This document shows, one piece after another, positions 1-59,170 of a stretch of 64,000 nt of DNA. The DNA comes from Psammoneis japonica (lineage: Eukaryota): the NCBI GenBank assembly GCA_008632985.1, contig QPGO01000221.1, forward strand, positions 1 to 64,000. Reading direction: 5' to 3'. The notes beneath the pieces are model-generated. The model did not search any database and had not been told where the DNA came from. It saw nothing but the letters and a program-made list of their open reading frames with translations. Within the stretch, counting starts at the first letter, position 1, and the number at the start of each line of letters is the position of its first letter. Both the position numbers and the translations under genes were made by a program.

Positions 1-57
1 GCGCCAGCTTTGGGTTCTTTTGGCATTTGGTTGTCGCAGCGCAACAATGCTGAATGC

Positions 58-580
58 TCTTGACACGACTGTCGTGTGATTCGGGTGCTGTCGCTTGGCT
101 CCACAATTTTTTGGAGCCCCTCCCTCTTTGACCAAATTGAGAGATTCCTGTCGTGCAAACATCTTCAACACACTTGATCATGTGCATCCTGTTCACAGAT
201 GTTTGACTTCAACCATGTCATGCCACCCAGAACCTTGCCATTTTGTCGAGCTTTTGATGTCCTTGATTTCCGCTCGGGCTCATCTTCTCGAGATTCTGGG
301 CGAGCTTTGCAGAGTTCCGACAAGGTCTTGTGGCGTTCCTCATGCAGTCGCGGCCTCCTCTTGAAGTTCCAAGACACATTTGGCAACACAAGTGTGATGG
401 TCCGACTGCTCCTTGTGCAGTCGTTCCATTTTTTCATCCACGACATCCTCCACATCCTTGATTGGATGGTCGGGCGCGATTCATTTTCTGATTTCTTTGC
501 ACTTGAACGACAATTCAAAACGCTGAAGCTCCTCTTCTGCCAACTGAAGCTCACCCAAAACAGTCGCCACACCTTTGGAC
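58..580 (-). pseudogene. Inverted, TA-converted paralog of the upstream part of the SNF2/ATRX-like pseudogene (about 60570-61100)
   Basis: Translation KSNICEQDAHDQVC matches KSNIYEQDVYDQVC at about 60940-60988. Nucleotide similarity extends to about 61100 in reverse complement. Confidence 0.75.
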
Positions 581-1119
581 GCGCTCCAGGTCTGGGTGGG
601 ACCTCGCACTGCTGAGCTGTGACATCGACAGTTTTTTGAATCACATCGCATGTCGTGTGAGTGATTTTTTGACATTTTGTGTCATTTTGCGGTGCACTCA
701 TTGAGCGATCCGTCCAACAACTTTTGACATTTTTTGTTGCAGCGCGATTCTGTGATGTCTTGAGAATCGCGCAGGGCAGGTGCACTTGCAAAAACATCGA
801 GTGGCGAGAGGCACAATTGCACCACAAACTTGGCTGTTCATTTGATGTTGAAGATGAGCACATCCATCAATTAAATTCTGGTGCTGCGGAGCTTGCACGT
901 GGAATTCCACAGGCCCAATGTCACGCGCAGTCCCGCCTGGGGCTGGAGCGCGTCTTTGACCAGTCTGCGTCATTTTCATTTGGGCTGGCTGTGGTGCCTG
1001 CTGCAACAGTTTCAGGCAATGGGCACAAGACCACTTCGCTGCACAGTGTTGGACTGCAGCTTGCGAACATCAAGCCCCCATTCTTCATTGACGAGCTCGG
1101 CAACACCGGCGTGCCGCAA

Positions 1120-1400
1120 GCTCCAGCTGCCACAAAGAGAGCAGAACATTCTGCTTCCAGTGGAAGTGGTGGCAGCAAGGCGAGCACCACAGCCAAACAG
1201 ATGGATTTACGTGGCACATTGCAGCATGAAGAAGCAGCATGTCAGTGGGCACAAGTGAAGCAAACCTGGTCAAACTCGGCTTCCAGCCGAGCCAAAAGGC
1301 AACAGAGCCCAAAGACTGCAAAGAAAATGAAGAGCACCCCACGATTTGCGAAAAGTTGTGCTGGCCAGAGACCACAAACAATGGAATCTCCTGCGGAAGT
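1120..1400 (-). pseudogene. GPR1/FUN34/YaaH (SATP acetate transporter) family fragment, paralog of 60090-60500
   Basis: SSFSLQSLGSVAFWLGW and ICLAVVLALL match GSSFPLQSLGSIAFWLGW and ICSIVVLALL near 60210-60410. Frameshifted. Confidence 0.65.
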
Positions 1401-2189
1401 GCATGACCTTGCACACAGTGCACAAGTGTTTTTGACCCTGGTGTTTGAAGAGTGCACACAAAGAAGCCAGCCATTGTTGTCAGTGCACGCGTGCTGGAGT
1501 GTTCGCACCAGCAGCCGCCGCACTCGCCCCTGCAGGGATGGTGAGGGAGTCCAGCGACAAAGTTTGCACCCCCCCAGGAACGCAAGGGAAACAAGTGCAG
1601 CAGTTTGTTTCGCATGTTCAGCAGAACCACAGCGACAAAGTTTGCAGTCCCCCATGACATGGCACGCCCACCGCACCGGAGGGAGAATTTTTGATTTCGA
1701 AATTTTGTATTATCATTCAATGTCCCCGAATGTCATACTCTCGTCAGTACCGGGACAACATCGTACGCTTCTACGGAGTGGAACGGAATGTACCGGTATG
1801 CATTGCTGTACTGTACCTTTTATCAGTAGGCAAATCTCGTGGAGACAGCACGTCCAACTTTTCAGCATCCACCAGAAACCAGACAACATCTCTCCGCAGT
1901 TTATTAGTGTGGAAATGAAGATGGGATTATTTTATGCCAAGGACATGCTCATTCAAATGGATGTAGACGAACCGTAAGCTGGTGTCATGGAAACAATCTC
2001 GCCTGTAGTCACGGCCCGAGTCATATCCATTTTTGCCATTGATTTAAACTCGACAATGTCACCGCTTCCGTTGTCAGCACTTTTATGATAGGTGGCCTGC
2101 GTGGCCTGGACACAGGCGTCGAACAAGGCTGGAGTCGATTCGGTGTTTTGAAAGTCTGATTACGGGCTCTCATTTACCTGAATTTATAC

Positions 2190-3239: not shown

Positions 3240-4542
3240 TAGGAACTGCAGGCTATTCACCATGGTTTGTGAATCTTTCTCTAGAGTCATCGACAAGAAC
3301 AGAAATATCACACGTGATTCGACTTGAAACGCTCATTCATGAGGAGCTTATGACACTACTCGTCGGTGCGTTGGCACCTGCGGTTGAGTTCCGCAAACTC
3401 TTCCGCAAACTGCTCCTCGGTGCGTTGGCGCTTCTCTTGGTGCCTACGGTTGAGTTCCGCAAGCAGTTCCGCAAGCTCTTCCGCAAACTGCTCGTCGTTG
3501 CGTTGGTGCTCCTGTTGGCGCCTGCGGATGAGTTCCGCAATCTCTTCCGCAAACTGCGCCTCTTCGCGTTGGCGCCTCTCTTGGTGCCTACGGTTGAGTT
3601 CCGCAATCTCTTCCGCAGACTGCTCCTCAGTGTGTTGGCGCCTCTCTTGGTGCCTACGGTTGAGTTCCGCAATCTCTTCCGCAAACTGCTTGTCGTTGCG
3701 TTGGTGCTCCTGTTGGCGCCTGCGGTTGAGTTCCGCAAACTCTTTCGCAGACTTTTCATGGTCCCGTTTAGATTTCTCGAAAGACATGACAGCCTGATTG
3801 TCTTGTTCTTGAGTGTACATCTTCGCAGAACGAGTTGGGGCTTGTCCGGCAGTCATCTTGGCGGCGGGACTGGACGTGGCAGAAGGAGTCTGCAGGGTCG
3901 GGCATTTGCTGTGCCTTTTGAGGAACTCTTCACGCTCCTCTTTTTGCGGGCGAATGAATTTCCAAAGTAATTCCAAAAGCTTGCCATTGGGTCCAGCGAA
4001 TCGCCCCACGAGGAACATCCTAAACGTTTTTCGATTTACAGACTTCGCAGCTGGGTCATGAATGACATGTTCTTGCCTCAACTTGTCCACCAAAGGCTGT
4101 AAATCATTTGGGTCTTGAACCACGTGAAAGCAATTGCCGCCTTGCATGAGGACTGGAGGAGAGTCCTTGGTGGTTTGCAGTTTCCAACCGTTGGCTTTGA
4201 AGCAAAAGTTTGGCTTGCCGCACAACTCAAACTTGCACTCGTTTTTGCTTGGCGCTTCGATTGCTCTATCCATGACGTCTGGGGTGAGGATCTTGAAGTT
4301 TCGGCAAAGATGCTCTCCCCGATCCTGGTTTGGCACGTCCTCGTCAGGAAAGATGGCGGTGAAAGAATGCTGTTCCACAAAAACAAACAATGCGACACGA
4401 GCAATGATGAGCAAAAGATGGACGCACTGGTGCGCGTAGAAAAGATGCTGAGTTCAACCATCTCACCTTTCCTTCCTCGGCAGCACTTGGTGATTCGGTT
4501 TCAACCACAGCACCAACAGAACGCGGCGAATCGTTGTTGAAC
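3240..4542 (-). pseudogene. Family-X gene copy 1, 3' part (separated from its 5' part at 10431-10756 by insertions)
   Basis: SFTAIFPDEDVPNQDRGE...VVQDPNDL is collinear with the intact copy at 33486-35120. Homology stops at 4542 and resumes at 5770-5777 and 10431. Confidence 0.85.
3360..3760 (-). repeat. Coding tandem repeat of about 60 bp units (coiled-coil EEQFAEEIAELNRRHQERRQ)
   Basis: About six copies of 'cggttgagttccgcaa.ctcttccgcaaactgc' are visible on the plus strand. Confidence 0.9.
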
Positions 4543-5769
4543 AGGCATCCTTGCGGTGCGTGTCTGATGTTTTCCAACCCACCAGTTCACACTTGTGCCA
4601 GTCCGGGAAACCGTCATGTTGATGCACGAAGTGGATTTCCGCATCGCTGTGAAACCTGCAGGCGGCGACGGCGGCGTTCACACCGGTTCCGCATCGCTTC
4701 CAGTCGCGGTGCCGCCACATGCCTGCAACTCTTTTTTTGTGGGAACCTCGTTTGCCTGTAAACCGTTGCTCAATCAGAGCTGTCATTGGACGTGCGACCG
4801 ATTCGTTTGGGTTGCCGGGGCCGTGAGTTTCGTCACAGTGAATGTCCGCGTGGCGTGCAAGTCGGAGCTGATCGCCTCGCATCATGGTCTGGCTGCAGCT
4901 GGTCCATGACACTGCCAAGTTCTTCCAAGCAGCAGATTGAATGACACAACTCAATGTCTTGTCCTCAGCAACACGAGACAGAGCATCCGCAGGCAGCTTG
5001 TCATGAGCTGATGCAAACGCAGTGAGCAAATTTTGGGTGCATCGCTCCTTGTGTGCCACCAGAGCGACGTCAACTGCCTCTGATCTCACAACGAATTTTG
5101 GATTGGGAGGTTTGTGCTCCTCCCAAGATGAGTGATGCTGCAGTGACCAAATGACACGCTTGGCCGACTTCGGCGTGACGTCTCGTTTCGACACTGCCTC
5201 CAAGAAGTGCCGGTCGACCTGGTCTCGCGTCAAGCAAGGCGGCCCCGACAGAGCCGGCGATTCATCCACCCACCTTTTGCACGCATTCCACTCAGTGACG
5301 TGGGTGCCATCCACCTTGGGTGGTGTGATGGTTTGGGCCAACAAGTCTCCTGTGGAGACCTGAGACGCCATCTTGGGTCTGTTCTGCTCATTGTGATGGC
5401 CTCGAGGGATCGTCTTTTGGGGTGCACCCACCCCACTGTCAAAAGAAAAGAGGTTTTTGAAATCAAACGCTCACTTGTGGCGTTCGACAAGTGGAGTCGT
5501 TTCGAATCATGTTGACATTCGAGTGGGAAGAAAGAACATTTCGACAAGTGGATTTTGTGTCTTGTCCTGTTCTGAAGGTTCTTATCTTCACTGACCACAG
5601 GCCCATCCGGGGTCCGGGAACCGGTTCCGGGGGTGGTTCCGGCGCCGGCCTCCTACGGGCAGGAACCACTGAGGACTCCCCCCGGTTAGCGCTGTCAACC
5701 CGTGACGTCAGGGGGAAGCGCGCCCCCCAATCAGCGGTGGTTGTTCCTGTCAACCGGTGTCGCGCGACC
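4543..5769 (-). mobile_element. Crypton-like tyrosine-recombinase transposon fragment, 3'-truncated
   Basis: ORF 4463-5431 has MMRGDQLR, GKRG, GMWRHRDWKRCGTG..A...RF and FPDW, typical of Crypton/Ndc10-type YR. The sequence is absent from the empty site at about 34891-34910. GC-rich palindromic end at about 5600-5769. Confidence 0.7.
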
Positions 5770-5777
5770 GGCTGCTC

Positions 5778-6144
5778 TGCAGCAGCGACTGTTGTGTGCA
5801 CATTTATGATTGCACATTATTTGCATGTCAATCGCACCACAGTCGTGGATGCGTACAAAGGACAGAACGATCACACAGAGTTGATCGGATGTCGAGAATT
5901 GCAAATACGATCGATTGACGATGTTGACATCTTGCGTGTCAATGGCAATCGCATCCGGACAATCTGTTGTCACGAACATGTTCTCCGAAAGGCCTTTTGT
6001 CTGTAGAAGCAGTGCAGAAGCTTTGGGCCATTGAGAACTCGTTCGGAGAAAACCAAAAATCACAGAGCAAAATTTAATCTCACAATTTCCACTTTTCGCA
6101 CACTGTTCTACTTTCGTTTACACTCGTTCTTCGAGCACAGTGCA
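5778..6144 (+). repeat. 5' LTR
   Basis: Direct repeat of 10063-10430. Starts TGCAGCA and ends CAGTGCA. Confidence 0.95.
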
Positions 6145-9100
6145 TTGTGTAGAACGAATCGCATCAGTTCTGCTGGAATCGATTTCCGAGCGGAAGAAGC
6201 TCAAGCCGAGCAGTGCCTCAAGATGGAACGCTGTTTTTCGTCTGCCAGACAAGAGGATTCGCTTTAATGCGGTCTGTTCCAAGCACCCAAGGATCAAGGG
6301 CTCTACAAGTGCACCGCATTGTCAAAAAATCTACACCGATTCATGGTTGCAGAGAATGCAAGTCCCGAGTCGATGTGGTCCGAGAAATGTGTCTGCCAAG
6401 CAAGGAGAGACTGTTGGAGAGTTTTTGGAGACCGAATTAACGAGCCTCGAGTCCAAGAGCAAGATGGAACCGTTGGAAAGTACCTCAAGAGTCTCATGTC
6501 TCATGTCTTTCCAAGAATTGCACTTCAGAATCAAAATCATTGTTTTCAAGACGATCTGAAGAAACCAGAGCTGCTTGACAGCAAGAAAGCCTCTGTCAGA
6601 CCCAAGAGGTCAATGATGAGAGTCCATGCGACCCTCAGATGGATTCTAAGTCGAATCTAGCGGGAAACCGAGCGCTGATTTGTCAGCTGTCACTCGCACC
6701 GCAAGGATGGCAGCATCAGTCTGCTGTCCAAAACAATCAACTGTTGCAACTCATCCTTGATGAACTGACCAAGTTTTGAGTCATCTAAAGGTCGTTCATG
6801 ACGTCCGTGACAAAAAAACATGTCAACTCAGGCTCTGATGGCGCAGTTGGTTCCAAAATAAAAAAGGTTCCAAATTTGGTTCCAAAAATGGTCTCCTGTG
6901 TGGTGCCAGAACAATCCAAAGTGAATGCAAGGTCTCATCTTTGAAAAAAGAACACCCACATCACGGATTGAAGCCATTCTAAAAATGAACTAGCAAAAGA
7001 GTGCAAGGGTGACTCTGAAAGAGACCCAAAAATGCGCCGTTCAAATGGCAATCGCACGCGGTCGCGTCGCGACAACGAAAATGCCGCTCGCAAAAAAAGA
7101 GATGAACGTCATGATTGATCAGGCGGTTCAAAAAATGCTCAAAGCGAGTTCCTTGAACAAAGAAAAAGAGCATGAGGGCAAAGAATCAGATTCTGATGCC
7201 CTCAGTGAAGAAAAACACCAATTTGATCGGATGATCCAGACTGAATCCGAAGAACAATTTTGGTCTGTTCACGAATTGTGTGCTTTGCTGGACATTAGGA
7301 AGCCTAGAAAAAAGGCAGAAATAATTCACACTAGTCCAGGAGTCATCATTTATATGAATACTTCCTTGGGAAAGGAGAGAAAAAAAAGCATCTACGTGTT
7401 CCTATCGACAACGGAACATCGTCAACCATAATTTTGCGCAAATTCGTGCGAAAGTTGAGAACACAAGAATCCGCCACCAAAAACTTGGGAAACCAAGGGT
7501 GAGCTCTTTACGACTGATAGTAAACACCGAATTCAGTTCTCACTATGCGAAATTTAAGGAATACTGATATTCAAACAGGATATGTTGAAAACACCAAATT
7601 TTCTTCAGGTTCAAATGATGTGATCATGGGACGCGACTTAATGTCCAGTCCTGCAAGTCATATTGGACTACGCAAATGAAGAAATCTAATGGGAAGAAGC
7701 AATTACCTTATGAAGAATGTTCATACACTCTTCGATGCCGATGTTTTCAAGCTGAAAACCGATCACATTGAAAAATATGACGCCGTGAATAGAGTTAATA
7801 ACGGAACCAATGGTCCTCGACTCACATTATCACGCCATCGATCTTAATCAAGTGACAACTACGGCGATGCATCTAACCCAAATGAACACAACCAACTCAA
7901 TCTTCTTCTTAAGAGGTTGAAATCGTTTTGGAAAGTTCCTCAGACGAATGTATGGGAAGCATCAGTGGATCTCATCGTGGAAAATCTGACGCGATTCCAC
8001 GACGCGTGAGAACCTTCTCCTATCATAGTCTTTGGAGGCGTCCAATCAAAAGGAGTTTGACCTATTATGAAAGATTGAAGTCTTAAGAATGAAATTACTC
8101 TGAATAAGTCGCTCTGAGACTCATTGTCTAAAGAAAACAGGTCGAGTTCGACCGTATCCGACACTCAGAAGCTTAGTAAAAGGTTCATACACGTAGTGTA
8201 TCCTTTACCCAATATTCAGGAAATACTATTGAAGCAAGAACGTTTCATATATGTAATCTATTTGATTCAAATATGGAATGCCACCATGTCAAATAAAAAA
8301 AGCACACGTCGTGCTCACACGAAAATCATGCCGTAGGGAGAAAATGAGTACTATAGACTTCCAATGAGAATCTATAGAGCCCCAGATATTTTTAAACAAC
8401 ACATGAGTGAACTCATAACAGGTTTGAAGTTGTCAGAACGACTGTATATGATCGTTTATACCTGACAAAAGGTGACTTCAAAATATCACCTGTACAAGTG
8501 ACAGCTTAATACGGCATTCAAACGACTAGAACAGTCGCTTAGAAGGTTAACAACAAAAGTCCTTCACTATTCAACTTGAAATAAACTATCAAGACTTCCA
8601 TACGTAACGATATGCAATCGATTACAAAGAAAATGGAGGCGATTCAAGCAATCGCAACACGAGAAAAACGTAAAGAACACTACGACATCTCGTTGTCATA
8701 CGTTACTATTATCGAGACATGTAGTCTCAACGATCTCCTGTACAATACTAGCCAAATTCACCTCAATAAAGGTCAAACGGCAAAAGTACAAGTACGGAAC
8801 GAAAAGTCTCCGAAAATATGGAGCGTATCAAATCAAAAACTATATTGTTATCATACACGTATTTCAATATTATACGTTACAACGGAAAAAAGAACTTCTG
8901 TCCATAGTGAAAACACTTAAAAAATTCCGAAATATACTGTTTGGCCAACAGATTTATACATACACGGATCATAAGACACAACGGACAAAGTCATACGTTG
9001 ACAACTTCAGTCCCGAATTAGAATACAACGAGGGCAAGGCGAACATCGTCGCGATAGACGCGATCAGCCGACTTACTATAGAAAATTGAATCCTACGACA

Positions 9101-10062
9101 ATGTTCTACCGTTAAAACGGGTTAAAGACATTCCCTCCAAATTGTCGGACGCGACATGTCATACGAACACTTTTCGTGGAGGCGAGCGAGATCGAAAAAT
9201 GCTCATGTCACAAGGATAAAATCGCCTTTTTAAAGGACGATTTAGGAAAAAACAGTGACAGATTGGCACACATTATACGCATCCACTTCACACTGGCAAA
9301 AGACAATCTCACAACACCCGTACGGTTGTATTGTACAATGCACGAGGCAAGACATTAAAATGTGCATCATGTCGACACACGAGATGTGCCAAAGATCTAG
9401 AAAAAGAAAAGAAAAATGGACATTTGTCCACTCAGTGCACGAAACCAGTGCCTTTGGAATGACAAAATGGCGCCAGCATGTCAGAAAGAAACGTCCAAAC
9501 AACGATTAAAATCCAACTGACAGATGGTTGAAGTGCAAAAAAAAAAAATCCACAATGGAACTCACAACCATCACAGGATTGATCATCAAGACGAAATGGT
9601 CACAATGTCTTTGACCATCGTTTGTTGTCACTTGTGAAACGTGGCAGTGCAGCAGAGCAACATGGCACACAAAGTGAGCCCGCCAAACTACATGAAATCC
9701 ACAAGCAAGTGAGTGAATGCCACAATTGAGAGCGTGCATTAAGTGCTGGGCACGATGCTGTGTGCAATCGATGTCAGGAAAAACACTTGCTCCAGGACAA
9801 CCCAGTCCTTGTGTTCATGTCAACAAGAACGTCAATGAGAACACTCGACGCAATGCTGTGTGCACACACATCAAGTGAGAAACAAACAATGTCACTCTCA
9901 AAAGACATTCGGAAATTGGAACAGCCCTGCATTGCCCATGCAAAACAACAACAGTCATTGCCAATGGCACAATGCAGTGAAAGTGGAGACATTGTTGACA
10001 CTGTCGATGTCCGTCGAATGATCCACTTGCAAATGACTCCAATGTGCAATTAGGGAGGCGAA

Positions 10063-10430
10063 TGCAGCATGCGACTGTCACACACATGTTTGTGATCATG
10101 TGTTGTTTGTGTGTCAATCGCGCCACAGTCGTGGATGCGTGCAAAGGACAGAACGATCACACAGAGTTGATCGGATGTCGAGAATTGCAAATGCGATCGA
10201 TTGACGATGTTGACATCTTGCGTGTCAGTGGCAATCGCATCCGGACAATCTGTTGTCACGAACACATTCTCCGAAAGGCCTTTTGTCTGTAGAAGCAGTG
10301 CAGAAGCTTTGGGCCATTGAGAGCTCGTTCGGAGAAAACCAAAAATCACAGAGCAAAATTTAATCTCACAATTTCCACTTTTCGCACACTGTTCTACTTT
10401 CGTTTGCACTCGTTCTTCGAGCACAGTGCA
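10063..10430 (+). repeat. 3' LTR
   Basis: Direct repeat of 5778-6144, preceded by a polypurine tract and followed by the TSD GCTC. Confidence 0.95.
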
Positions 10431-10756
10431 GCTCTACGCCAGCGAAATGAGGGGAAGCGAACTCATCCTTGGTGTCATTCGAACGCAGAGATGCAAGCTC
10501 GTCAGCGGTGTTGTTTGAACGCGGAGAGAAAAACACGCGCGCAAAATTTTCTGGGTTAAAAAATCTCACCTTTCTTTCCTCGGGTTCTGTTCGAACGCAG
10601 AGATGCAAGCTCGTCGGCGGTGTTGTTGGAACGCGGTGAGAACAACTCGTCGCCGGAAGAGTGCGGCGATCGCAATCCCTCCGAGTCGCTCCTGTCGTTG
10701 TCATTGTCGTTGGCTCCGCCAGCCACTGCGGAGAGAGCGCCTTTGGAGAAGTTCAT
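10431..10756 (-). pseudogene. Family-X gene copy 1, 5' part
   Basis: MNFSKGALSAVAGGANDNDNDRSDSEGLRSP matches the start of the 33486-35120 ORF. It contains an internal duplication of the ADELASLRSN segment. Confidence 0.85.
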
Positions 10757-10879
10757 CGTGAGAATGGCATCAATGCAATGTCAAATGCTCAATGCTGTTG
10801 AGTCGGGTTGAGTTGTGACGGTTGTGATGCGAGTGCTTTTGCGACGCGCTGCGATTTCAGATTCGAGTTGTGATTCACT

Positions 10880-11060
10880 CCGCAGAGCCTGCGTGGCTTG
10901 ATGTGCCACAGTGTTGGTTCTTCGCAGAAGTCTGGCATGTTTCCACCCAACGGATCTTTTTCGAATTTACAGCAGCGCGTGCGCGCGCATGCGCGTCTTT
11001 CAAATTCCGCGTCCCGCTAAAAACATCGCACGCGACGTCATCATTTCATCGGCCTGTCTG
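10880..11060 (-). promoter_or_regulatory. Family-X upstream module, copy 1 (TA-converted, E2F-like site altered)
   Basis: Homologous to 20770-20960, 35230-35402 and inverted 49700-49890. It lies upstream of the ATG at 10756. Confidence 0.6.
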
Positions 11061-11949
11061 CATGACATGTGGTGAATTGTGGACTTTGAAGCTTGTTGCT
11101 GTGCTGCCGGCAGTCTAATCACAGAAAGCCCTTCCAAATTCACTCAAATGTTAAGACCACCCTTGGCAGACTGGCCGTCAATCAAGATGAGTGCCCATTG
11201 ACAAATCACCCGATGACGGCAGTGCAGCAGAAGCACACGCAGGGCCCATGCAGCAGCAGACCTCTGCTCTGGTCAGGGGGCTGACAGCCACACTCACCAG
11301 AGTCAACGAATGAATGACAATGCTTCCTTCACCTCTGGCGGAAACCTTTTGAATCATGCATGAGGTCCCCATTCGCATGACCCCACTTTCTCTGCTCCAA
11401 ACCAGCTCACAATTTTCACAACGACAAAGTCGCAACACATCTTCTTTTTCAGCGCCTGGTGCGTGCACAGGGCACAACATTGTCAATCAAATGATGGTTT
11501 TTCTGGCTCATCGCCAACGAATGAACTTTGTCTCAAAGCGAGTTTTCCCCAACAAACCACCCAACTCACATTCATGGGAATGCAGCAACTGGCGACAAAA
11601 CACCTTGTGTCCCTCCTGGGTGATGCTTCTGCTGCCAGTCATCACTGACGTCGATCGCGTCTGCACGTGGCTGGATGTGAGAAACTGCTGGATGGCTGGT
11701 GTGCATGTTTGTGCGGCACATGCGCAGTTCCGCACTTGCCATGCCGCCGGCCTGTGCCGCACTGCCGACCAACCAAATGTCTCCTCCCAGGCAGATGGAC
11801 CGGCGACCAACCGCGCCGCGTGCAAACCTCCTCAAGACCGTCTGTCCGCACCCTCGGCCCATCTTTTTTCCACACCGGCCTCGGGCACAAAAATTGAGAA
11901 AAGCGCGGTCACCATGGTGCGGTTGTTGCTGTTGCGGCTGTTGCTCTCT

Positions 11950-13490
11950 CATCGGAACAAGCGGTTTGGCCCCTTGCTGTCGCTCCCATTCCTTCTCCAT
12001 CCTCCACTCAATGGATCTCACCCCACCCCCAACAAGCGCAACTGCTTCAACCTCGCATTCGTCAACTCCAGAGCCCCATGCATCGCCGTCAGATGTTCCA
12101 ATTGCTGCACAGACCACCATGGCGATGAAGGAGCCAGCACTTGTTGTCATCGAAATCTTTGACACCGACATTTGGATCGGTCGTCACCAAGGTGACTGTG
12201 ACCACAATGGAGACTGTGAATCTGGTTCACGCAGTTACAAACGTGACAGATCCTTCATGTTCTGACCTTGGTGCGTGGAACAGAGATTGTTGCTGTGACC
12301 CGTGCTGTGTTCCTCCACCAACCCCGCTTTGTCCACATCCGGAACTAAACTTCTTGTACAGTGATCCACCAAATGGTGAAAAGCAGGGGCTGTGCAGCGG
12401 AGACTGTGACAGGGACAACCAGCGAGAGCCTGGATTGGCATGCTTCACACGTGACAGCTTTGACCCGGATCCATGCTGGTCTGGACCAGGACAGTGGATC
12501 AAAGATTGCTGCCACAACGCGTCTGAAACACTGAACCCCAGTGCATCTGTGAGTGCGTCCGGCCCAACCGGCAGCCCGACGTCACCTCCAGCCACTGCAA
12601 ACCCCACAGGACAGCCGCCACAATGTCGCCACAGACTCAATCAAGGACGGCTCCTTGCGCTTTACTTCCAGTGCTCACTTTCTTTGCTCAGGACCTGCCA
12701 CGCAGATCATTCATCCTCCTCCCCTTCAAACGCTCCCTCCGACAACAGCAATTTTGACTGTGTCGTCGTTGCCACCCACAATGCAGCCTCCCACTTCAAG
12801 CCCAACCGAGGCAAACACCTTGTCACCGACGGCACACAACATCAGTGCACCCGACATTCAAGTTCTTTCGTTTGTCGCAGAACATGCGCTCTTGAGAAAT
12901 TGGTGTGGGATTGATGCAACCGAGACTGTGAGCCCGGGTTGCGCTGTTTCAAATGAGACGGTTTCGTGAAACGCACGTAATTTCTTTGCGCTGCGAATGC
13001 TCTGCATTGTGAGATTCATCTCATGTCGCTTCTTTGTTCAGCTCCAGGTTGCTCTGGCAATGGGGAAGAAGAACAAGGACTGTTGCTTTGATCCTTTGAC
13101 ACTGGTTCTGGCGCCGCCAATGGAACTAGCGCCACCCCTGATTCACCTTCGCCTTCGCCAACTCGCTGTCACATGTTCGCTCTGCCATTGACCAACATGG
13201 GGACAAAGGAGTTGACACTGGTTGCAATCAATGTCTTTGACATCGATGCTCGGCTCGGTCGTTGTCAAGGTGATTGTGACCGCAAACAAGACTGCAAACA
13301 TGTTCCAAGACTGGAGTCAGTGGGGCCCCAGCAATCAGTTGTCAGGAGTGCGTCATGAACGGGCAATTTGTTGGGCATTGAGCTCTGATGCGCATTGTCA
13401 AGAAAGACCGGTGTGCTTTGAGCGCGTGGGATTTCAAAAAGCACCTGGATGTGTCGTGGCCGTGGGTCAAGGGGGGCAGCTGCTGCACAT
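11950..13490 (+). pseudogene. Frustulin-like (acidic cysteine-rich domain) cell-wall protein remnant
   Basis: Repeated GRHQGDCD, GLCSGDCD and GRCQGDCD, plus GL.CF.RD and PGC.G.G..DCC motifs separated by Pro/Thr/Ser linkers. Many frameshifts. Confidence 0.8.
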
Positions 13491-15632: not shown

Positions 15633-15657
15633 GCAGCAGCAGCAGCAGCAGCAGCAG
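15633..15657. repeat. (GCA)n microsatellite encoding poly-Ala on the minus strand
   Basis: gcagcagcagcagcagcagcagca seen directly. Confidence 0.9.
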
Positions 15658-19870: not shown

Positions 19871-19899
19871 ATAATAATGGTGCTCTTAGCTAGAGTAAA

Positions 19900-20755: not shown

Positions 20756-20769
20756 CTTTTGACTCGATT

Positions 20770-44400: not shown

Positions 44401-47400
44401 GGGGCTGGATGGTGAGTGGTGAGTGCTGGATGATGGAAGGTGGATGGCAGAGACTGGTGGGTGTGGGTGCTGGATGATGGACACTGGATGTGCTGGATGA
44501 TGCTGGGCACTGGATGGCAGATGTGCTGGGTGCTGGATGGTGGGTGGTGGTTTGTGGTTTGTGGATGTTGGATGGCAGATGACGGATGCTGGATGTTGGA
44601 TGGAGTTGTGGATGGCAGATGTTGGACGCTGGTCTCTGGATGATGGGTGCTGCTCCACAGACGGTGTGTGCTGGATGCTGACACTGGCTCCTGCTGCTGG
44701 AGGGTGGATGGCCGCTGCTGGAGGGTGCGCGGTGGATGGCACATGCCAAACTCTTGTTGGTTGATGCTTTGTGGTGGATGGCAAATGATGGATGCTGGAA
44801 GGTGGGTGGTGGATGGCACAGGATCATGGATGCTTGATGGTGGATGGCAAATGCTGGATGCTGGATGATGATGGGTGGCAGATCATGGTGTGTGGTGGAT
44901 GTCACATGGCAGGTGGCAAGTCATGGATGGCAGACATGCAAGATGTCAGATGATGGATGTGGGACATGGGCTGCAGACATCAGATCATGGATGGCGGGGT
45001 GTGGCAGATGGTGGGCAGATCACACTGGATGGCAGATGGTGGATGAATGATGGAGAATGGTTGACGATTGCTGGCAGACAGCAGCCAGTGGCTGGTGGAT
45101 GGAGGTTTCTGGATGCCAGGTGGTGTGTCATGGATGCTGGGTGCTGGATGTCTTGTGGAGCATGCTTGATGGCTGATGATGCCAATTGCTGGATGTCAGA
45201 CAGTGGGCGGCACATGGGGGAGGTGGTGGCCACTGCAGAAACAGGGGCATGCTGGGTGAGGGATCTCAGATTCCTTGTCCATGGTGGAATGCTGTGTGTG
45301 ACCTGACACCCTTGTAAACTGCCCAAGGAGAAAGATTGAGCAGCTCTCTTTTGGCCCACAATTTGATTGGGGCAATGTGCAGTGCCTGCAAAGTGACAAA
45401 AAGCAGCTGATTCAGCTTCAATTTGTTTGGCTGCTTGGTCTGATTTCACCCCTCTTTTTCTTCTCTGGCATGCCTTGGAGTCTGAGTGAAGGTCAACCTT
45501 GAAGCTGGTGTGCACTTCATTTTGAAACACACCTCAAGCCTTTACAACAACAGTGGAAAGAATCAGACCCATCATGCTCACGGCAATTGGGGCACAATTT
45601 GGGCTCACAAACTAATTTGAAGCCACCCTCCTGTGAAAAACCACCTGCCTCTGTGACCTCCACATTTGTCAAAACAAGCATGGCTTTCCCCTGTGAAAAA
45701 ATGTGCCAGTGTTGCAACTTGGACAACACAAGTGTCACAATCAACAAGTGCTTGGCAGAGAGTGGGCTGCAGTGTGATCTGCGTCTTGCAGACAAAAAAA
45801 AAGGAGAAAGAAAGTTGCCACAGTGCTGACAACTGACAAGCAAGTTGCCATGGAAAGCCACCAACAACACCCCTCCACACCCACTTGCATCAGCTTTTCA
45901 GAAGCACACTTGCACTTCCAAGCAACTCTGTTGTGCACTGCTGCACCTGCTGCAGCCCAAAGTGTGCATTGCAAGACTTTGCCCAAGGTTGCAAGCCAAC
46001 AATTGACAGTGTTGACAAACACCAAGCTCCAATTCTGAACTTTGTCAGTGCTGCTGGGTTGCCTCCAGTTCACTTGGTCCAGCCCAGTGGTGAGAAACCA
46101 ACAGGGCCAAGTCAAAATCTCTGAAAACATGCAGAAAACAACCTTGTTGCTCTGCCAGCTGTGATGCCTTGCTTTGCGGCTGCTCAGAGTCCCAGAGCTG
46201 TCACCCAATCTGTCTCACACAACAATGCTGTGGCTTCACAAGGGCTGGAGCCAACAAAACAACAAGAAAGAGCCCACCCTGCAATGCCAAAGCTGCTGAT
46301 GCTCTTCTTAAAAGCAAAGACAGCAGCCAAAACACATCATGACAAAGAAGGCAAACACAACTCATCATCATGGCTCACAATTTCTTCTCAGCTCTTCCTC
46401 TCAATCAGCTCATCAACATCAATGAGCTGATGCAGAACAGAAAAGGGGTTGCACCGCCACTGCAAGAGAGGCTGCAAGCCAATCAAAGCTGTTTCAAAAA
46501 GTCCTCAACAGAAAAAAAGGACTCTGTCATGGCTCTCATTGTGCTCAAAGACACCATGGTCAAGCTTTGTCTGACAAGCAATCATTTGTTGTCTTTGGGT
46601 GCACACCCACATTGATGATTGTGGCAGTGGCATGGTGTGCTCTCTGTGCACTGGTTGTCAGCTGCTGGTGCTCAGCCCACTGCACATCACCCTCAAATGA
46701 AAAACTGCTGTGCACACGAGGAAAATTGCGTGTTGGTCTCAGGACGCCTGTTTTTGCACCCCCAAGTTGCACCCCAAATTGCATCTCTTAGATTTGAACA
46801 GGACAGGTCCAGTGGCAGCTCTCTCTAGAGCCTGGACTCCAAGCCAAGCAGCGAGAGGACACCAGTGCACTGGCTGACAAGCAAGTCACGGGGATCAAAG
46901 CAGACCAGGAAGGGAGAGACAGGGTGCTGAAGATGGACCTGACACACATTGTTTGTTTGTTCGTTCGTTTGTTGTTCGTTCCCTTGCATGATGTTTTTAA
47001 TTGCAAAATTGCCCACCACAGACCCGATCTTCAGACTTGCATTTCTGGGTTCCCATTGATGACTGCCACATCGCACACCCCAGCCAGTTTTAGACAGCTG
47101 GATCTGGTGCTGTGGATCATTGTCCCCAGTGGATTCCATGACATGGCAACATTTGTTTGTGTGCAATTTGCTTCCGCACATGGGTCAATGGGCTGCAATG
47201 CGCTGTTGTGTGCTTTGATGTCATGAGCAGATCTAAGGTGGCACAGTGCAGCACTGGCAGCTGAGAGAGAGCTCTCTTCACAGTTGCACTCTGCTGGCAG
47301 TTGGCAGAGAGCAACTCTGATGGAGATCCAGGGAAAATGGTGCACAACCAAGGCACCATCACCAATGTGTTGCAGTCAAAACCATCTTCTGTTGATTGGC

Positions 47401-49700
47401 TGAAGACTGCCAAAATGTGGTCCACCCTCCTGTGGCGACACACAATGTTCCACTTGAAATTGTTGGCAGGCCCACAAAGCAATGCAGTGTTGCATTTTTT
47501 CGTGACGTGTCAACCCTTGATTCGTGGCTTTGGTGTGGCAAAGACTGGCATGAGGAGAGTGGCAGCTGGGGTCATTCCCATGTCTCGAGGTGCCTGCAAT
47601 TCATTGTCGACACAGGCTGCCACGTCTCTGGCATTTCCTGAAAGCTTCGAACTGTCCATTTTGCCCAGCAGAGAGCTTGGGACTTCCCGCACAGCAGAGC
47701 CGCTTGTCAACTGCACTCAAGGCATGCGCAGGAGTTGCGCGCAGCAGCTCAATGTCGGAAGACGACGGTCCGTGCCATTTTCGTGATTTGCACGACAAAT
47801 TGCCGCTCAACGCTGATGATGATGATGACACGTTTGCGATGTGCAATTGGTGCTCAATGACCACATCAACAATGCTCTCAAGAACATGCATGCATCAAGA
47901 AAGTCCCCCGGGCAAACTGTCAATTGTTCCACACTCGAATGCATCAAACGATGGCGACGTTTTGCTTTCAAACAGAGGCTTCTTTCATGACTGAACACAT
48001 TCTCAAACTTAATGAACTAAATGTCTGCAATGCCCAAACAGTGGAGGACACGTCATTGTTGTTGCTGTTGTTGCGACAATGCACCATCGTCATGTTGCCA
48101 ATTTTTGGCGATGATGCATGCAGCGCACACGAAGTTTCCAGTGCAAAAAAAAAATCAGAAAGTTGAGTTGTCTTGTCATCTCTGTGAGGTTCTGAGATTG
48201 CCTTGAAGTGCAACGCATTCTTCCTCTGGAGTTGAGCAAAGGTGCCTTTCCTGCCACACAGCCAAATGATCGCATCCCTTGCGATTTGTGGAAACATGAG
48301 CACCACGTGGTTGCAGCAGATCCACATTTGGAACAATCTCACACTGTGCTCCACAACTCAGAGCGTTTTTCCACGATGCCCAGTCACCGGCAATGGCACA
48401 AGCACAGCCAGAAACGGGCTCCATTGCATCAAACCAAGCTTCCAATGCTTCATGCTTCCCGCCATGTCTGGGTTCCGAAGAATCTCCATCACAGGTTGGA
48501 GTCACTTGAGCAGCACAGCACTCAAGAAATGGATCCCAAACAGAAACGACCCATCATTGCATTCCTCCCTGACCTGATCTGTCTCGTCCAAGCTCGCCAT
48601 GTGACTGCTGACACACTGCAGACACCAACTCTCTTTTCACAAAATGAAAGGCGCTTTGAGACACTTGATCAGTGTTTCATGGGAAGACATCCATTCGCTG
48701 CTGAACATGATCAAAATCCTCTGTCTGCAAGTGTTTGAAGCAAATGTGTCAAAGAAAATGAGCAAGACAATGAAACAAAAGCACAGCGCGGTTCGATCGC
48801 CACAGAGAGCTGGGGTGATGAGCAGCGAATCGGGGTGCCAACACAAATTTCTCTTTCCATCTTGCAATTGGCTGATTGCCTTCAAACCAGCACATGGCAT
48901 TGGCGCTGTTGAAAGGATTGGAGTTGGTCTGATGTTTCGCTTTGATTCTTAATTCTCATGGTGTGTGCTGTTTTGTGTGCGAGGAATGCGATGAGAGGGA
49001 GGTGCCAACTGTGAACTGGAGAACCACTGGCTCCTGCTTTTTTGGCAGTGCTGGCTGGCGTTGTTGCAGCCAACAACTCTTTTCAGCTTGGAGCTTGTCA
49101 AACACCCCTTTTGGAGCAGCCACCAATGACTCTCACTTGGCTGCCAAGGGCGGCTCTTGTCTTTGTTTGCTTTGAAAATCAGAAGCTTGACGCTGCGAGG
49201 GATTTGCAAAGGGCCGCTGTGGTTGACAAGCTGCTCCCAGGAGCAACTGCAATGCTGGCCCTTTCCTGGGATCTGTTCAGCAGGTTGCTGGCACTGTGGG
49301 TCACTTTGATCATGTGCTCTTGCTTGGGATGCCTTGGGTGCATCAGATGTGTCTTGCGATGCAACAAAAGACCAGACCGCTGCTGCCACATGAGGTGCTG
49401 ATGAAATCAAGAAGGTGCCATGTGCCGGGGGTTGGCTGTTGAGAGGTGCTCAGCAAACAACCTGCAAAGATGAGGAAACATTTGCCCTGAGCCCACAGCC
49501 GTGCTGGGGGTGCCCTTGCTTCCTGTTTTGCAGCAACGCTGGAGTGTGCTGGGGGGGAGCACCGCCCGTGGTGGCCACTGGCAAGCCATTGCGCACCTGA
49601 TTGGCTCACTTGTTGGAGCAATGCAAAATGGGTGAAGCCTTCTCGTGGTGAATGCAAAGAAGGCAAAGTCACAACAATTCACCACAGACGTCACACTGCA
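41490..49700. other. Second large TpA-depleted domain (CpG also depleted to about 47400)
   Basis: TA is almost absent except in YTAR. ORFs lack Tyr. Confidence 0.88.
44296..45250 (+). repeat. Strand-skewed (GGAT/GATG/TGG) low-complexity satellite-like tract
   Basis: Dense ggatg/tgg units, including an exact 28-bp duplication ggatggtgggtttctgatggtgggggct at 44351-44406. Confidence 0.9.
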
Positions 49701-49890
49701 CTGTAGACAGGCCGATGAAATGATGATGACGTCGCGTGCGATGTTTTTGGCGGGACAGGAATTTGAAAGACGCACGTACGCGCGCACGTGCTGCATTCGA
49801 AAAAGATCCGTTGGGCGTGTAGAAACATGGCTGATTCTACGGAGAATCAACTTTGTGGTACATAAAGTCACGTACCGGTAGGCTCTACGG
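49700..49890 (+). promoter_or_regulatory. Family-X upstream module, copy 4
   Basis: TTTGGCGGGA at 49746-49755 and TTTGAA at 49762-49767, upstream of the ATG at 49994. Confidence 0.6.
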
Positions 49891-55800: not shown

Positions 55801-56999
55801 CGCAGGCAGTTCTCTCTGCAAGGCTCCAAGTGCTGGAAATCATTACTGCAATGATGAGAATAGATTTATCAATGAGTAATCTGACAAAAGTGCAACAGAC
55901 TAGTGCTGTTAATGGCTAATTATGACTAGGAGCTACATGCCACGACCTCGAGGAGATGCAACATGCCACGGCAGATTGAACTGGCAGACCCCAGCATGCC
56001 GAGAAAACACTCGTATCGATATTTATTCTCTACTGGGCATAGTTACAGTTCGATCTTGAAGGTATGAGGGACTCGAAAAAGCCCCTTTGAGGGACAAACA
56101 AGGTGTACAACTGTGCTTTGCATCGATTTGGCTGCAGGTGCTAGATTCGCAGAAGTCTGAGTCCAGCTGCTTGCGTGTCCTCACGTCCTTGAATTGCTCT
56201 TTTGTTTCCTTTTCTTGCCCATAGTAGCTTCCTTTATTACATGAATGGGCTCTCTAATTCCTTCAACAACCCCTCCTCATGAATTTCTTGGCATTCTGAG
56301 TCGATCAGGCGGTTGCGACAGGACCAAGGCGACGGATGCACTTGTGGATGAGCTCTTGTTTTCAGCTCAGCATCACCTCCCATAACAGTCAGGATATTTT
56401 CTCCTTCATCTCGATCATAAATATCGACGAATGAATGTTCTCCTATGCCACACCTTCAATGTTGAACCTTGAGAACGTCGCCTGAAGTTGTCGGAAGCAG
56501 CGACATCGGGTGAAACAAGTGGGCGGCAGCAAAAGTCTTTTTTTCGCTCTGCAAGTGGCAAAAGTTGCAATGTTTTTAGATAGAACGATAGACATATAAG
56601 TTAATGATGAGATACAATCGAAACATTGCGAGTTTTGACCCAATAACACAAGCAGTAACGTTCTTACCGATGAACGGCGACTCACCATTTTCGTTCCGTA
56701 ACTTTTACGCATTTTTTGTACTGAAAATTGTGAGAGGCAGATCTGAATTTCGGCCCAAAAAATAGAAGGAAGGAGCGGCTTTTCAGTACTGCCGTAGAAT
56801 CTACGTGCAAGATGACGTCACAGTACAAAATGCCATTTCTACGCAGCGGTGGCCGCTCCGCGAGCGTCGTGGCCGTGCCGAACCAAATCCGCACCACGTC
56901 TGTCGTCCATCAGGTTCTCGAATTTTCCCGACCGCCCCAAACTCCCCACGGCCAGACGCTTGGTCGGTGCGTCAACACAAGCGCACGGTACACAGCACA

Positions 57000-59170
57000 C
57001 ACGGCAGTTGGAAGCGTCGTCCAAGTCATCGCTCGCTGAGAACAGCACTGCAGTGTTGTGGAGACTTGGCTCCGTTCATAAATTGAATGTCACTGGGATG
57101 ATGCTGTGTTGGTGGGAGCACTGCCACACGTCAAAGCGAAGTGTGCTGAGCGCACCCCACGTTGGTCTTTGTTTGTTGGCACCTCCCGAGTTTCTGGTTT
57201 TTTGTGCCTTTTAGATGGCTGGTGTGTTTGGAGCATTTTTCCCTGCCATTGAAGATCAGCCACAGGATGAAACAAGTTCTGGTGAGTGAGTGTGCTGTCT
57301 TTGATGCTGTTTCTCTCTTCCAGCACTGCTGTGTTTCTTGCCTTTTGTCCAGCTCATTCTCAGCAGCTTCTTGCAGAGGCAGAGCTTGGGTTGTGCACGC
57401 ACTGAGCTCATTGCTTGTTGTCTCTGAATCTCCATCTCATGTTCTGTGGTGAGCACATCCAGCATGCACTCTCTGTGCTGACTCTTGGGTGACGAGAAGG
57501 GCGTGTGGCTGCGACTGCTGCTCTGCGCAGCTGCTGCCACAACTGCTGCTGTGGCTGTTTTCACTTGCGACTCTTGTGGGGCAAAAACTGCTGTCGCTGC
57601 AGCTGCTGTTGTTGCAACCACTGTGGACAGGGATTCCTTTTTGGCGTTGACTCTCTTTCTTTGTTTTGTGAAGGCAACAATGCATGGCATGCTGGCACTG
57701 CAGCTCGCATGGCTGATGGCTGGTGTGGCAGGTTCCCAGCACTTTTGCCACGCCGCATGCTGCGAAGCTGACAAGGGAGGCGCTGCACTGCATGGTGTGC
57801 CAGCCAGCGGAGCTGCACAGCTTGTGTGGCTGCTGATGGCAGGTGTGCCAGTGCTTTTGCGGGTCGCCATGAACCTGACAATGTGTTGACAACGCATGGT
57901 GTGGCAGCACCGAATGGCTGGTGTGGCAGTGCTTTTGACTCCAACTTTCGTGCCAGTGTGGCAATGGTGCAACAATGGCGAGAGTTGTGTCTGTTGTTTT
58001 TACTCAGGGCATCTTTTTTTGGCATTTGATTTGGTGATGTGGCACTCCCACGGAGCGCTGCACTTTTCAGTCTGGCCAGTAAATTTTTCTGCGCAATTTC
58101 TACGTGCCACGTTAAATTCTACGTGGCCTTGGCACTTGCACAAAGCACCTCGCGATGCATCGCTCCCCGCTGATGCTCACCATGGCGCTGATGCATTGTC
58201 GTTTGTTGCACAGTGCTGAACAGGATTTGGTCAGCTCCCAAGCAACGGGGTTCACACAAAAGCGACAAATCACAGGAGTAAAATGTAACTGCTGAGGGAG
58301 AGAATCTTTGTTGAGTGTCAAAACTGAGCTGACTTTGCAGAAGCAGCGGCCATCAAATTTGCTGCACGCGGATCCCCACCTTTCCATCTTCATTGAGCGT
58401 GACAATGGAACAGGCTGCCAGGCACATTTCGCCATTCTTGTTGAAATGACATGATTCCACAATCATGCGATCGCCCAAGGCTCCCAAACAATTGTTTTCA
58501 AAAGGCTGGGAATCCAAAATGAAGCAGACAAGACAAATGGTTGAGCATTCTTGGAGAGCCAACAAGAGCGGATCGCCCAAGTGCAATCAGAAATCAGACG
58601 CGTCTTGGAAAAGCTTCCAGAAGGCACTCACCAAAAGCAGACATGAGCACAAATGAAATTTGTCAAAAAGCATGTTGCACTTCCCTTCCAACAACCAGTT
58701 CGACACTGAAAAGAACCTCTCGTGTGCTGCCTTTAAAAAGAACTCGGCACAAGAACATCCTGCAGGCAATGATTTGGTCGGTCTGGCATCCCTTGGAATG
58801 GACACACATGCTGTTGAAACCTTTGGCAGGACGTGGGAAAAGCACATGAAGGAGCATCTTATCCATCAATCCAGAACGAGCCCGAGTCTCAGTGCGCTCG
58901 GGTTGGTTGAGCGTCGTTTCCAGGCATTCCAAATCCAGATGCAACAAAGAGGAGTGTTGCATCAACTTGAAAGACTTCAACTTCACTCCTCTGTCCAACA
59001 TTGTTGACACATCAAAAGACAAGGCAAAACAAGGGGTAAGAGCTGACACCATGAGAGCGAAAGAAGTCAAAGGAACGACGAGTCACAAAACAAAGAACGA
59101 ACACACCACCAGACAATGTGATGACCACAAACGCATGTTGCCAGGGTGACAACTCGACTCACACTCTGTC
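57000..59170. other. TpA-depleted domain of unidentified decayed sequence
   Basis: TA is nearly absent between TA-normal flanks. Confidence 0.8.

Follow-up and report, generated by a model that had tools for sequence, protein, structure and literature searches.

Domain-restricted TpA-to-TpG/CpA hypermutation in a 64-kb stretch of diatom nuclear DNA

We analyzed 64,000 nucleotides (nt) of DNA from the diatom Psammoneis japonica (contig QPGO01000221.1, positions 1 to 64,000 of the forward strand, here called the window), in which blocks that have lost nearly all of their TA dinucleotides alternate with stretches of ordinary composition, here called normal DNA. An earlier note on this DNA had described seven such blocks and proposed that TpA is turned into TpG or CpA within them. 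We are confident that the conversion is real, polarized, specific for TpA, carried out in place, and restricted to domains. As the best explanation overall, we somewhat favor targeted TpA hypermutation of resident diatom nuclear DNA through adenine deamination, resembling a process reported for Bigelowiella natans.

The seven blocks have a combined length of 35,436 bp, roughly half of the window. They hold 150 TA, while the density in normal DNA (4.48% of dinucleotides) predicts about 1,587. Their observed/expected (o/e) ratios for TA were, in order, 0.02, 0.16, 0.10, 0.04, 0.12, 0.04, and 0.09, compared with 0.56 to 0.81 in the seven inter-block stretches. After refinement we recognized ten blocks, with TA o/e values of 0.02 to 0.26 (Table 1). 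In 500-bp windows the ratio was 0.00 to 0.15 along extended stretches and 0.4 to 0.95 outside them, and the entire window carries 1,414 TA versus 4,263 predicted from base composition. The longest runs free of TA measured 1,518, 1,282, 1,100, and 1,084 bp, and at the normal TA density the probability of such runs is about e^-68 to e^-49. The o/e values for TG and CA reached 1.5 to 1.8 in the blocks versus 1.15 in normal DNA, so the blocks are indeed nearly free of TA and rich in TG and CA, as first described. Their confinement to domains also held up, with edges sharper than had been claimed. Seven edges were switch-like (1708, 7296, 37622, 38713, 41553, 49704, and 59177): the TA density changed within less than 100 bp, and the spacing between TA dinucleotides went from hundreds of bases to about ten. 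The edge at 15.9 to 16.6 kb was soft.

Next, we looked at how the four pyrimidine-purine (YR) steps were distributed. In normal DNA, TA, CG, TG, and CA made up 4.48, 5.53, 7.31, and 6.94% of dinucleotides, respectively (sum, 24.26%). The corresponding values were 0.48, 4.90, 9.86, and 9.54% in blocks that kept CpG (sum, 24.78%) and 0.27, 0.87, 11.76, and 11.14% in blocks that lost it (sum, 24.04%). TG plus CA thus went from 14.3% in normal DNA to 19.4 to 22.9% in the blocks, and because the sum of the YR steps stayed constant at about 24%, the pattern is as expected from transitions alone, with YR steps re-sorted into TG and CA and not lost. The GC content was 0.511 in the CpG-normal blocks and 0.465 in normal DNA, a gain of about 4.6 points that approximates the expectation if each TA acquired one G or C. 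Most 1-kb bins within blocks had similar numbers of TG and CA, the exceptions being a minisatellite region at 43.7 to 45.7 kb and the bin at 57 to 58 kb.

CpG was nearly absent from two blocks only (o/e of 0.16 at 20979-32281 and 0.24 at 41554-49703). In four or five others, TA was lost and CpG retained at an o/e of 0.6 to 0.9, which indicates that the process acting on TA was faster than the loss of CpG or came earlier. No stretch of the window lacks CpG yet keeps TA; CpG loss is nested inside TA loss.

Direction, specificity, and flank rule

Four partial copies of one gene, lying on both sides of the block borders, allowed us to compare converted and unconverted versions of the same sequence. 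All four (copies A to D; Table 1) comprise the C-terminal half of an SLC35B1/UAA nucleotide-sugar transporter gene plus flanks. The best relatives of the transporter fragment were 83 to 85% identical, and those labeled with an organism were all diatoms, at 62 to 81% identity (Seminavis, Cylindrotheca, Chaetoceros, Nitzschia, Skeletonema, Fistulifera, Thalassiosira, Pseudo-nitzschia, and others). Each copy carries stop codons or departs from residues that all of 120 diatom homologues share, indicating that all four are pseudogene fragments, spread by segmental duplication. Copy B lies within a block, and the others lie in normal DNA. Where copy C has 94 TA (18217-19947), copy B (12929-14637) shows TG at 43 and CA at 34, has kept TA at 11, and has other dinucleotides at 6. 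Paralogues across the borders therefore differ mainly by TA versus TG or CA (77/94), as the earlier note had stated from an intron string; the quoted 17-mers are where it placed them, with the TA form, TGTGTATAGTATGGAAC, at 2400 and 19099 and the TG form, TGTGTGTGGTGTGGAAC, at 13808. Copies A and C have 54 TA in common.

Because the paralogues alone give no root, we used the 120 homologous diatom proteins as an outgroup to establish the direction of change. At the 21 codons where A and C agree with each other and differ from B, the outgroup majority matched A and C in 17, B in 2, and neither in 2. For example, a leucine TTA (120/120 homologues) became a TGA stop, a valine GTA (114/120) became GCA, and a tyrosine TAC (103/120) became TGC. 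The match of the outgroup to the A/C residue indicates that TA is ancestral and that TG and CA are derived, so the proposed direction held when checked for ancestral TG or CA.

We then compared the ages of the copies and the kinds of changes they had accumulated. On 1,056 common columns the transversion distances were similar for all pairs (A-B, 0.054; A-C, 0.053; B-C, 0.046). Copy B had 45 lineage-specific transitions at TA, against a single one in A and none in C. The corresponding counts were 21, 35, and 21 for other transitions and 20, 23, and 17 for other transversions (B, A, and C, respectively). Three copies are thus equally old and only B was converted, which shows that the effect is neither repeat induced nor a matter of age. 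The changes themselves were almost entirely transitions: 45 against 4 transversions among the B-specific changes at TA, and 77 against 6 when B was compared with C at the TA sites of C.

The A:T-to-G:C transitions that had been claimed were found, restricted to TpA. Counted per strand by the preceding base, A-to-G changes affected 79/196 adenines after T, compared with 20/318 after A, 23/283 after C, and 12/232 after G. Two pairwise comparisons of a repeat, R1, which is present in the window in both states, gave equivalent results (17/46 and 7/22 at TpA, and 2 to 9% in other contexts). The changes to TG (43) and to CA (34) were intermixed along copy B (34 runs versus 39.0 ± 4.3 for shuffled order), and strand-run clustering of these changes was not significant in this copy (P = 0.15). 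Both strands are targeted.

Two pairs of repeats in which both members were converted bear on where and when the change took place. In the 367-bp pair 5778-6144 / 10063-10430, the two copies differ as TG versus CA at 9 sites, and in the inverted pair 20750-21605 / 49010-49922 (approximately 860 bp) there are 12 such sites. The corresponding counts in pairs from normal DNA were 2 (copies A and C) and 0 (40111-41057 / 63060-64000). Such sites are explained most simply by a TA (or CG) ancestor altered once in each copy. In one short run, one member of the 367-bp pair reads TG-TG-TG-CA-CA and the other reads CA-CA-CA-CA-TG, as might be expected had a single (TA)n ancestor been converted separately in each copy. 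Conversion took place in situ, after duplication. In the inverted pair, it begins at the matching homologous junction in both copies, and this common junction may be inherited or determined by sequence.

To see how the bases around TA related to its survival, we set the 130 TA that survive in 34.0 kb of block sequence against the 1,246 present in 27.8 kb of normal DNA, normalizing for length. Survival differed strongly across the ten NTAN contexts (chi-square = 148, 9 degrees of freedom, P value = 2 × 10−27). It was 0 for ATAT, 0.004 for ATAC, 0.027 for ATAG, 0.041 for GTAC, 0.049 for ATAA, 0.059 for CTAC, 0.150 for CTAG, 0.151 for GTAA, 0.276 for CTAA, and 0.431 for TTAA. With respect to the base 5′ of TA on each strand, survival was monotonic (A < G < C < T), RTAY sites being the most sensitive and TTAA the most resistant. 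Within a given context the two strands were used about equally, although the numbers are small (ATAC, 7 to 7; ATAG, 8 to 7; ATAA, 6 to 11). From these few sites we infer that the flanks govern the susceptibility of the duplex site and not of a single strand.

Sequencing-run check, copy number, and block content

We compared the window with contigs built from a public sequencing run (X1), which contains 68% of the words sampled from 12001-22000 and whose contigs have a word depth of about 60. Contigs of 640 nt (10789-11428), 1,503 nt (11433-12935), 510 nt (13443-13952), and 659 nt (22360-23018) matched the blocks with 3, 4, 3, and 2 differences, respectively. The X1 contigs reproduce the TA-free sequence, which argues against an assembly artifact, and the claim survived this check against reads for the bulk of the sites, where the X1-derived contigs mostly lack TA. 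Of the eight longest X1 pieces, seven were free of gaps and one (27202-27812) had 3; single-base insertions or deletions occurred elsewhere, mostly at repeats.

The differences that remained had the same signature. We evaluated the differences listed (40 of 419), of which 23, spanning 10825-21049, were clean in that one contig carried all of the depth. All 23 were transitions at TA or CG steps. In 11 of these clean differences, a TG or CA of the window corresponds to TA in the run, and in 9 it corresponds to CG. There was also one CA/TG swap (a pair of entries) and one reverse case (window CG, run CA). The window carried TG or CA in 20/23 of these clean listed differences, and in none did it have TA where the run had TG or CA. 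Block contigs with listed differences had 21 in 4,056 bp, versus 1 in 1,409 bp for normal contigs, and the absence of insertions and deletions in these contigs argues against leftover long-read errors. These results suggest that the source of the window is further converted than that of the run, that is, recent activity, strongest at the 15.9- to 16.6-kb edge. The differences between X1 and the window could be recent mutations, a difference of strain or time point, or a technical effect.

As a background control, we took 313 kb of metagenome sequence, in 70 loci that surround relatives of the transporter gene. TA o/e ranged from 0.49 to 0.99, and in these loci there was no TA-free run longer than 411 bp, no 1-kb window below an o/e of 0.2, and no TA-depleted block. 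The loci are gene dense, so they serve as a background control only and not as evidence of absence from other diatoms.

The blocks comprise both very-high-copy and approximately single-copy DNA. Summed X1 contig depth was 8,000 to 26,700 at 9001-11668, a very-high-copy repeat, against about 60 to 120 nearby, and about 50 to 340 at 11.7 to 16.3 kb and 21 to 29 kb, where single contigs are at about 60 and the DNA is approximately single copy. A unit of about 370 bp from the high-copy repeat is present twice, at 5778-6144 and at 10063-10430; no metagenome contig contained an exact match to a 32-nt word taken from this repeat. The R1 repeat has a copy with normal TA (Table 1) and other pieces at 3845-4551, 10428-11048, 20620-20959, and 49664-51221. 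Aligned with 34243-34902 of the normal copy, the piece at 3906-4542 had CA at 10, TG at 7, and TA at 2 of 22 TA sites; aligned with 34942-35402, the piece at 10577-11047 had CA at 4 and TG at 3 of 13. The earlier note had spoken of a "reverse RIP" of repeats (RIP being repeat-induced point mutation), and this part of the claim failed: DNA at about single-copy depth was converted, and of the four pseudogene copies three were spared, as were several members of another repeat family. Repetition is thus neither needed nor sufficient.

The proposal that the blocks represent chromatin rich in transposable elements found no support, since no transposon or viral domain was recognized in them by Pfam searches of open reading frames (ORFs) of at least 90 amino acids (aa) or by a six-frame reading of 20701-32702. 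We examined 267 stop-to-stop ORFs of 90 aa or more, and no Pfam family scored above its cutoff within any block; the only block matches, all below their curated cutoffs, were to UAA (copy B), an acidic stretch of CAF1A, and a repeat resembling apolipoprotein. The six-frame reading, with stops as X, covered that block only and yielded no Pfam family. The 552-aa orphan ORF of the normal R1 copy (33489-35144, minus strand) had no Pfam match above the cutoff and no homologue among the candidates scored. The 415-aa ORF 15002-16246 (minus strand) had one match among 1.84 billion representatives searched, confined to a Lys/Glu-rich stretch. Neither ORF had a relative in viral contigs, and Rfam and tRNA scans of the window found no match. 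A self-comparison in purine/pyrimidine code returned only pairs already known from blastn above the decoy maximum score of 259. In normal DNA, an RT_RNaseH (retrotransposon RNase H) fragment was found at 8580-9086 (27.3 bits), in AT-rich sequence (GC of 0.36 to 0.38) with normal TA; not all transposon remnants in the window were therefore converted. Two of the three stop codons contain TA, and long ORFs in blocks need to be read with caution for this reason.

Candidate explanations and known systems

Regional hypermutation at TpA, which the earlier note presented as possibly undescribed, has been reported to arise de novo in B. natans (Mettrop et al., bioRxiv 10.64898/2026.01.13.699255, 2026). 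According to the main text of that preprint, 231/302 nuclear mutations in 15 mutation accumulation lines fell in integrated giant-virus and virophage regions, the giant-virus region being 186 kb long, single copy, and silent (10.64898/2026.01.13.699255). Of the regional mutations, 230/231 were A>G or T>C, every GC-biased one was at TpA, and the rate was about 6 × 10−7 per site per generation, in some lines only. The preprint also describes 124 clusters in the genome that are depleted in TpA and enriched in CpA plus TpG, and it proposes an ADAT2-like protein or homologue as the agent (10.64898/2026.01.13.699255). As far as its text describes them, the two cases have in common A>G/T>C changes only, at TpA only, with TpG and CpA as products; discrete regions beside normal DNA, with single-copy targets possible; and a footprint of TpA depletion with gain of CpA and TpG. 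The window is from a diatom (a stramenopile), whereas B. natans is a chlorarachniophyte (a rhizarian), so a second lineage is added for the process. The window is also closer to saturation (block TA o/e of 0.02 to 0.10, compared with a Rho of 0.45 given in the preprint for the active nucleocytoplasmic large DNA virus [NCLDV] region), its blocks are without detectable viral or transposon genes, a host pseudogene was hit, and two blocks lost CpG. De novo occurrence was shown in B. natans and is only hinted at here, by the X1 differences. The words diatom, flank, context, and trinucleotide are absent from the preprint's main text (10.64898/2026.01.13.699255), and full-text and further literature searches found no further account of TpA-directed hypermutation and none in diatoms. 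The near-saturated blocks, the strict flank order, the edges of less than 100 bp, and the CpG loss only inside TA-depleted blocks are new here. We think it probable that the process in the window is of the same kind as that in B. natans.

The explanation that we somewhat favor runs as follows. A process at the DNA level has turned nearly all 5′-TpA-3′ of the blocks into TpG or CpA, through an A-to-G transition on either strand. It acted on resident DNA after duplication, in discrete domains, sparing equally old paralogues elsewhere, and its susceptibility order for the flanking base (A > G > C > T) left ATAT and other RTAY sites erased while about 40% of TTAA remain. An enzyme recruited to silenced or foreign chromatin would deaminate the adenine of TpA, leaving hypoxanthine (inosine), a base that is read as G when the DNA is copied. 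CpG in the two most altered blocks would in addition have decayed to TG/CA, as in methylated silent DNA; slower decay of 5-methylcytosine (5mC) in the same silent domains is the simplest account of the CpG loss. That the agent is an adenine deaminase is, judged from the sequence, a tentative proposal. More speculative still is the suggestion that diatoms and chlorarachniophytes share an old and still active defense enzyme, which would read duplex TpA (RTAY best, TTAA worst), edit the adenine on either strand to a base that pairs with G, and be recruited to CpG-methylated, silenced domains. If true, this enzyme would be the first DNA adenine editor found naturally in eukaryotes, comparable to RIP and APOBEC but directed at A:T.

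Several points weigh against this explanation. The sequence of the window alone cannot show an enzyme, a modification, or a chromatin state, and X1 and the assembly may derive from one sample, in which case X1 tests the assembly process without being biologically independent. Loss of CpG could be a further product of the process that acts on TA, for example, of a deaminase that acts on both A and C. The flank preference differs from that of ADAR. R1 is present in TA-normal and TA-depleted states alike. No recognizable viral or transposon gene lies in the blocks, and the targets include a pseudogene of a host transporter; the foreign DNA targeted in B. natans is thus not confirmed as the target here, although heavy mutation may hide a foreign identity.

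We also weighed explanations in which the initial event is different. TpA, being palindromic, might first be modified on both strands, by N6-methyladenine (6mA) or by an oxidized or glucosylated T of the 5-hydroxymethyluracil (5hmU) or base J type, and then deaminate or mispair, in parallel with the decay of methylated CpG. TA and CG are the two self-complementary YR steps, both end as TG/CA, and CpG was lost only within TA-depleted blocks. In addition, both flanks matter symmetrically, as for an enzyme that reads a duplex palindrome, either strand was hit about equally, and the 23 clean differences among those listed from X1 all lie at TA or CG steps. This signature, however, cannot separate modification from direct deamination, known eukaryotic 6mA sits at ApT and not at TpA, and 5hmU at TpA is to our knowledge known from dinoflagellates and not from diatoms; judged from the sequence, we regard prior modification as unlikely. 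A layered history, in which all resident DNA was once converted and stretches with normal TA were inserted or duplicated later, with the edges as insertion junctions, would account for edges of less than 100 bp and for the recent duplicates (97% and 92% identity) in the normal stretches. It sits poorly with three equally old copies (0.046 to 0.054) of which only B was converted (45 versus 1 and 0), and the 11 sites among the listed differences where the window has TG or CA and the run has TA, with none in reverse, suggest recent activity; we consider such a history very unlikely. Error-prone repair by a DNA polymerase eta-like enzyme misincorporating opposite T at WA motifs had been named as a candidate, and A-to-G change at TA does belong to the spectrum of that polymerase. 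ApA, however, was at background (20/318, like CpA and GpA, versus 79/196 at TpA), the o/e for AA/TT was not reduced in the blocks (1.22 to 1.26 versus 1.15 in normal DNA), and the removal of about 96% of TA far exceeds a by-product of repair, which makes this candidate highly improbable. The other two mechanisms named in the earlier note, adenine deamination and a modified T or A, stay viable.

A technical origin, through long-read miscalls at modified bases or polishing error, would fit the observation that the 23 clean listed differences are all TA/CG-step transitions, with TG or CA in the window in 20. We find it hardly credible given that X1 contigs at a word depth of about 60 also lack TA across the blocks, that seven of the eight longest X1 pieces are gap free, that the YR steps are strictly conserved, and that the flank rule is obeyed. 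RNA editing fixed as DNA, in which an ADAR- or ADAT-type enzyme would hyper-edit A to I in retroelement transcripts before their reverse transcription and insertion, has in its favor the preference of ADAR-type editing for U before the edited A, which the Discussion of the preprint mentions as well (10.64898/2026.01.13.699255). TG and CA are nevertheless interleaved without strand runs (34 versus 39.0) and balanced in most 1-kb bins, single-copy DNA and an intron-containing gene fragment were converted, and the Pfam and six-frame searches described above found no reverse transcriptase in the blocks. In B. natans, moreover, the mutations arise in resident DNA according to the preprint (10.64898/2026.01.13.699255), and overall we regard RNA editing as exceedingly improbable. 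A reversed polarity, with TG and CA ancestral and the TA copies produced by RIP-like CpA-to-TpA change, would be compatible with the three-copy paralogue tree, which alone is unrootable. The outgroup favored the TA state at 17/21 informative codons, the TA o/e of normal DNA (0.56 to 0.81) matches that of the 313 kb of diatom-like contigs, and a starting TA o/e of 0.04 would be unexpected for natural DNA; we give this polarity practically no credence.

Targeted TpA hypermutation, as favored here, shares features with several known systems. RIP in ascomycete fungi is likewise a dinucleotide-specific transition hypermutation that wrecks stretches of DNA, has sharp edges, and is read out with dinucleotide indices. 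It turns CpA into TpA, so that TA goes up and GC down, whereas in the window blocks TA is destroyed and GC is raised; RIP is also triggered by duplication and hits all copies, whereas here single-copy DNA was hit and copies A, C, and D were spared. The decay of methylated CpG also turns a palindromic YpR step into TpG/CpA in silent DNA, and it may be seen here at 20979-32281 and from 41554 to about 47500 (CG o/e of 0.16 to 0.24), but it cannot remove TA and accounts only for the CpG loss. The statement that neither RIP nor 5mC decay explains the blocks was therefore correct. APOBEC3 and ADAR of animals share a deaminase-type, context-dependent transition hypermutation directed against invading nucleic acids; they act on single-stranded cDNA or double-stranded RNA and are strand asymmetric, whereas both chromosomal strands were affected about equally here. 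The tRNA adenosine deaminases TadA and ADAT2-ADAT3 naturally modify A34, whose 5′ neighbor is U33, and in this they resemble the process in the window. Evolved TadA, used in base editors, deaminates A in DNA; a natural role of this family in DNA editing in protists is a hypothesis only.

Mutation of a single dinucleotide from A:T toward G:C, confined to particular domains, goes against the usual GC-to-AT bias, and the saturated footprint in a diatom indicates that the process is not peculiar to one species and reaches a highly abundant group of ocean phytoplankton. The window constrains the process by the flank rule (RTAY over YTAR), in-place action on both strands, independence of copy number, sharp edges, and the nesting of CpG loss. 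Blocks nearly without TAA and TAG stops yield long false ORFs, which can mislead gene prediction, and a scan of TA o/e offers a cheap detector of such domains in other protist genomes.

Coordinates and minor features

Table 1. Coordinates of the TA-depleted blocks, the transporter pseudogene copies, and the normal R1 copy
Feature	Coordinates	Strand	Remarks
TA-depleted block	1..1707		Truncated by window start; 2 TA versus ~76 expected; CpG o/e 0.68
TA-depleted block, uneven	3358..7295		TA o/e 0.10 (3358-5582), 0.26 (5583-6646), 0.13 (6647-7295); holds a hypermutated R1 copy (3845-4551) and one ~370-bp high-copy unit (5778-6144)
TA-depleted block, CpG near normal	9399..16450		TA o/e 0.09; CG o/e 0.81
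TA-depleted block, small	20250..20666		4 TA; TA o/e 0.16; missing from the earlier note
TA- and CpG-depleted block, largest	20979..32281		TA o/e 0.04; CpG o/e 0.16; TG and CA o/e 1.8; first ~640 bp homologous, inverted, to the end of block 41554-49703
TA-depleted block, short	37623..38712		TA o/e 0.10
TA-depleted block	41554..49703		TA o/e 0.04; CpG depleted to ~47.5 kb, closer to normal at 47.5-49.0 kb
TA-depleted block	56841..59176		TA o/e 0.09; CG o/e 0.61
Copy A, SLC35B1/UAA-transporter segment	2166..3319	+	Normal DNA; TA kept
Copy B	12921..14879	+	Within block; protein match 13484-14458; saturated with TA-to-TG/CA changes
Copy D	17695..18210	+	Normal DNA; TA kept
Copy C	18209..20212	+	Normal DNA; TA kept
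R1 repeat copy, TA normal	33298..35403	-	Unmutated reference for the hypermutated R1 pieces 3845-4551 and 10574-11048; contains the 552-aa orphan ORF

Some blocks contain or adjoin further repeats. Tandem repeats were found at 3387-3753 (66 to 78 bp, about 4 copies) and at 14952-15351 (144 bp, 2.8 copies), the latter array falling inside the 415-aa ORF. The stretch 43700-45700 holds minisatellites of 28 to 35 bp of the TGGTGGATGG type and is strand biased, with a TG-rich plus strand (166 TG versus 81 CA and 157 TG versus 86 CA per kb) and a GC skew of 0.27. The short block at 37623-38712 is flanked by 81-bp inverted repeats that are 95% identical (37234-37314 and 38860-38940) and whose arms retain TA; the pair may represent a foldback element or an element with terminal inverted repeats. 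In TA-normal DNA toward the end of the window, we found a Gpr1/Fun34/YaaH fragment (60292-60654) and fragments of an SNF2 helicase domain (61555-62016 and 62303-62683), and the normal-DNA pair 40111-41057 / 63060-64000 is 97% identical.

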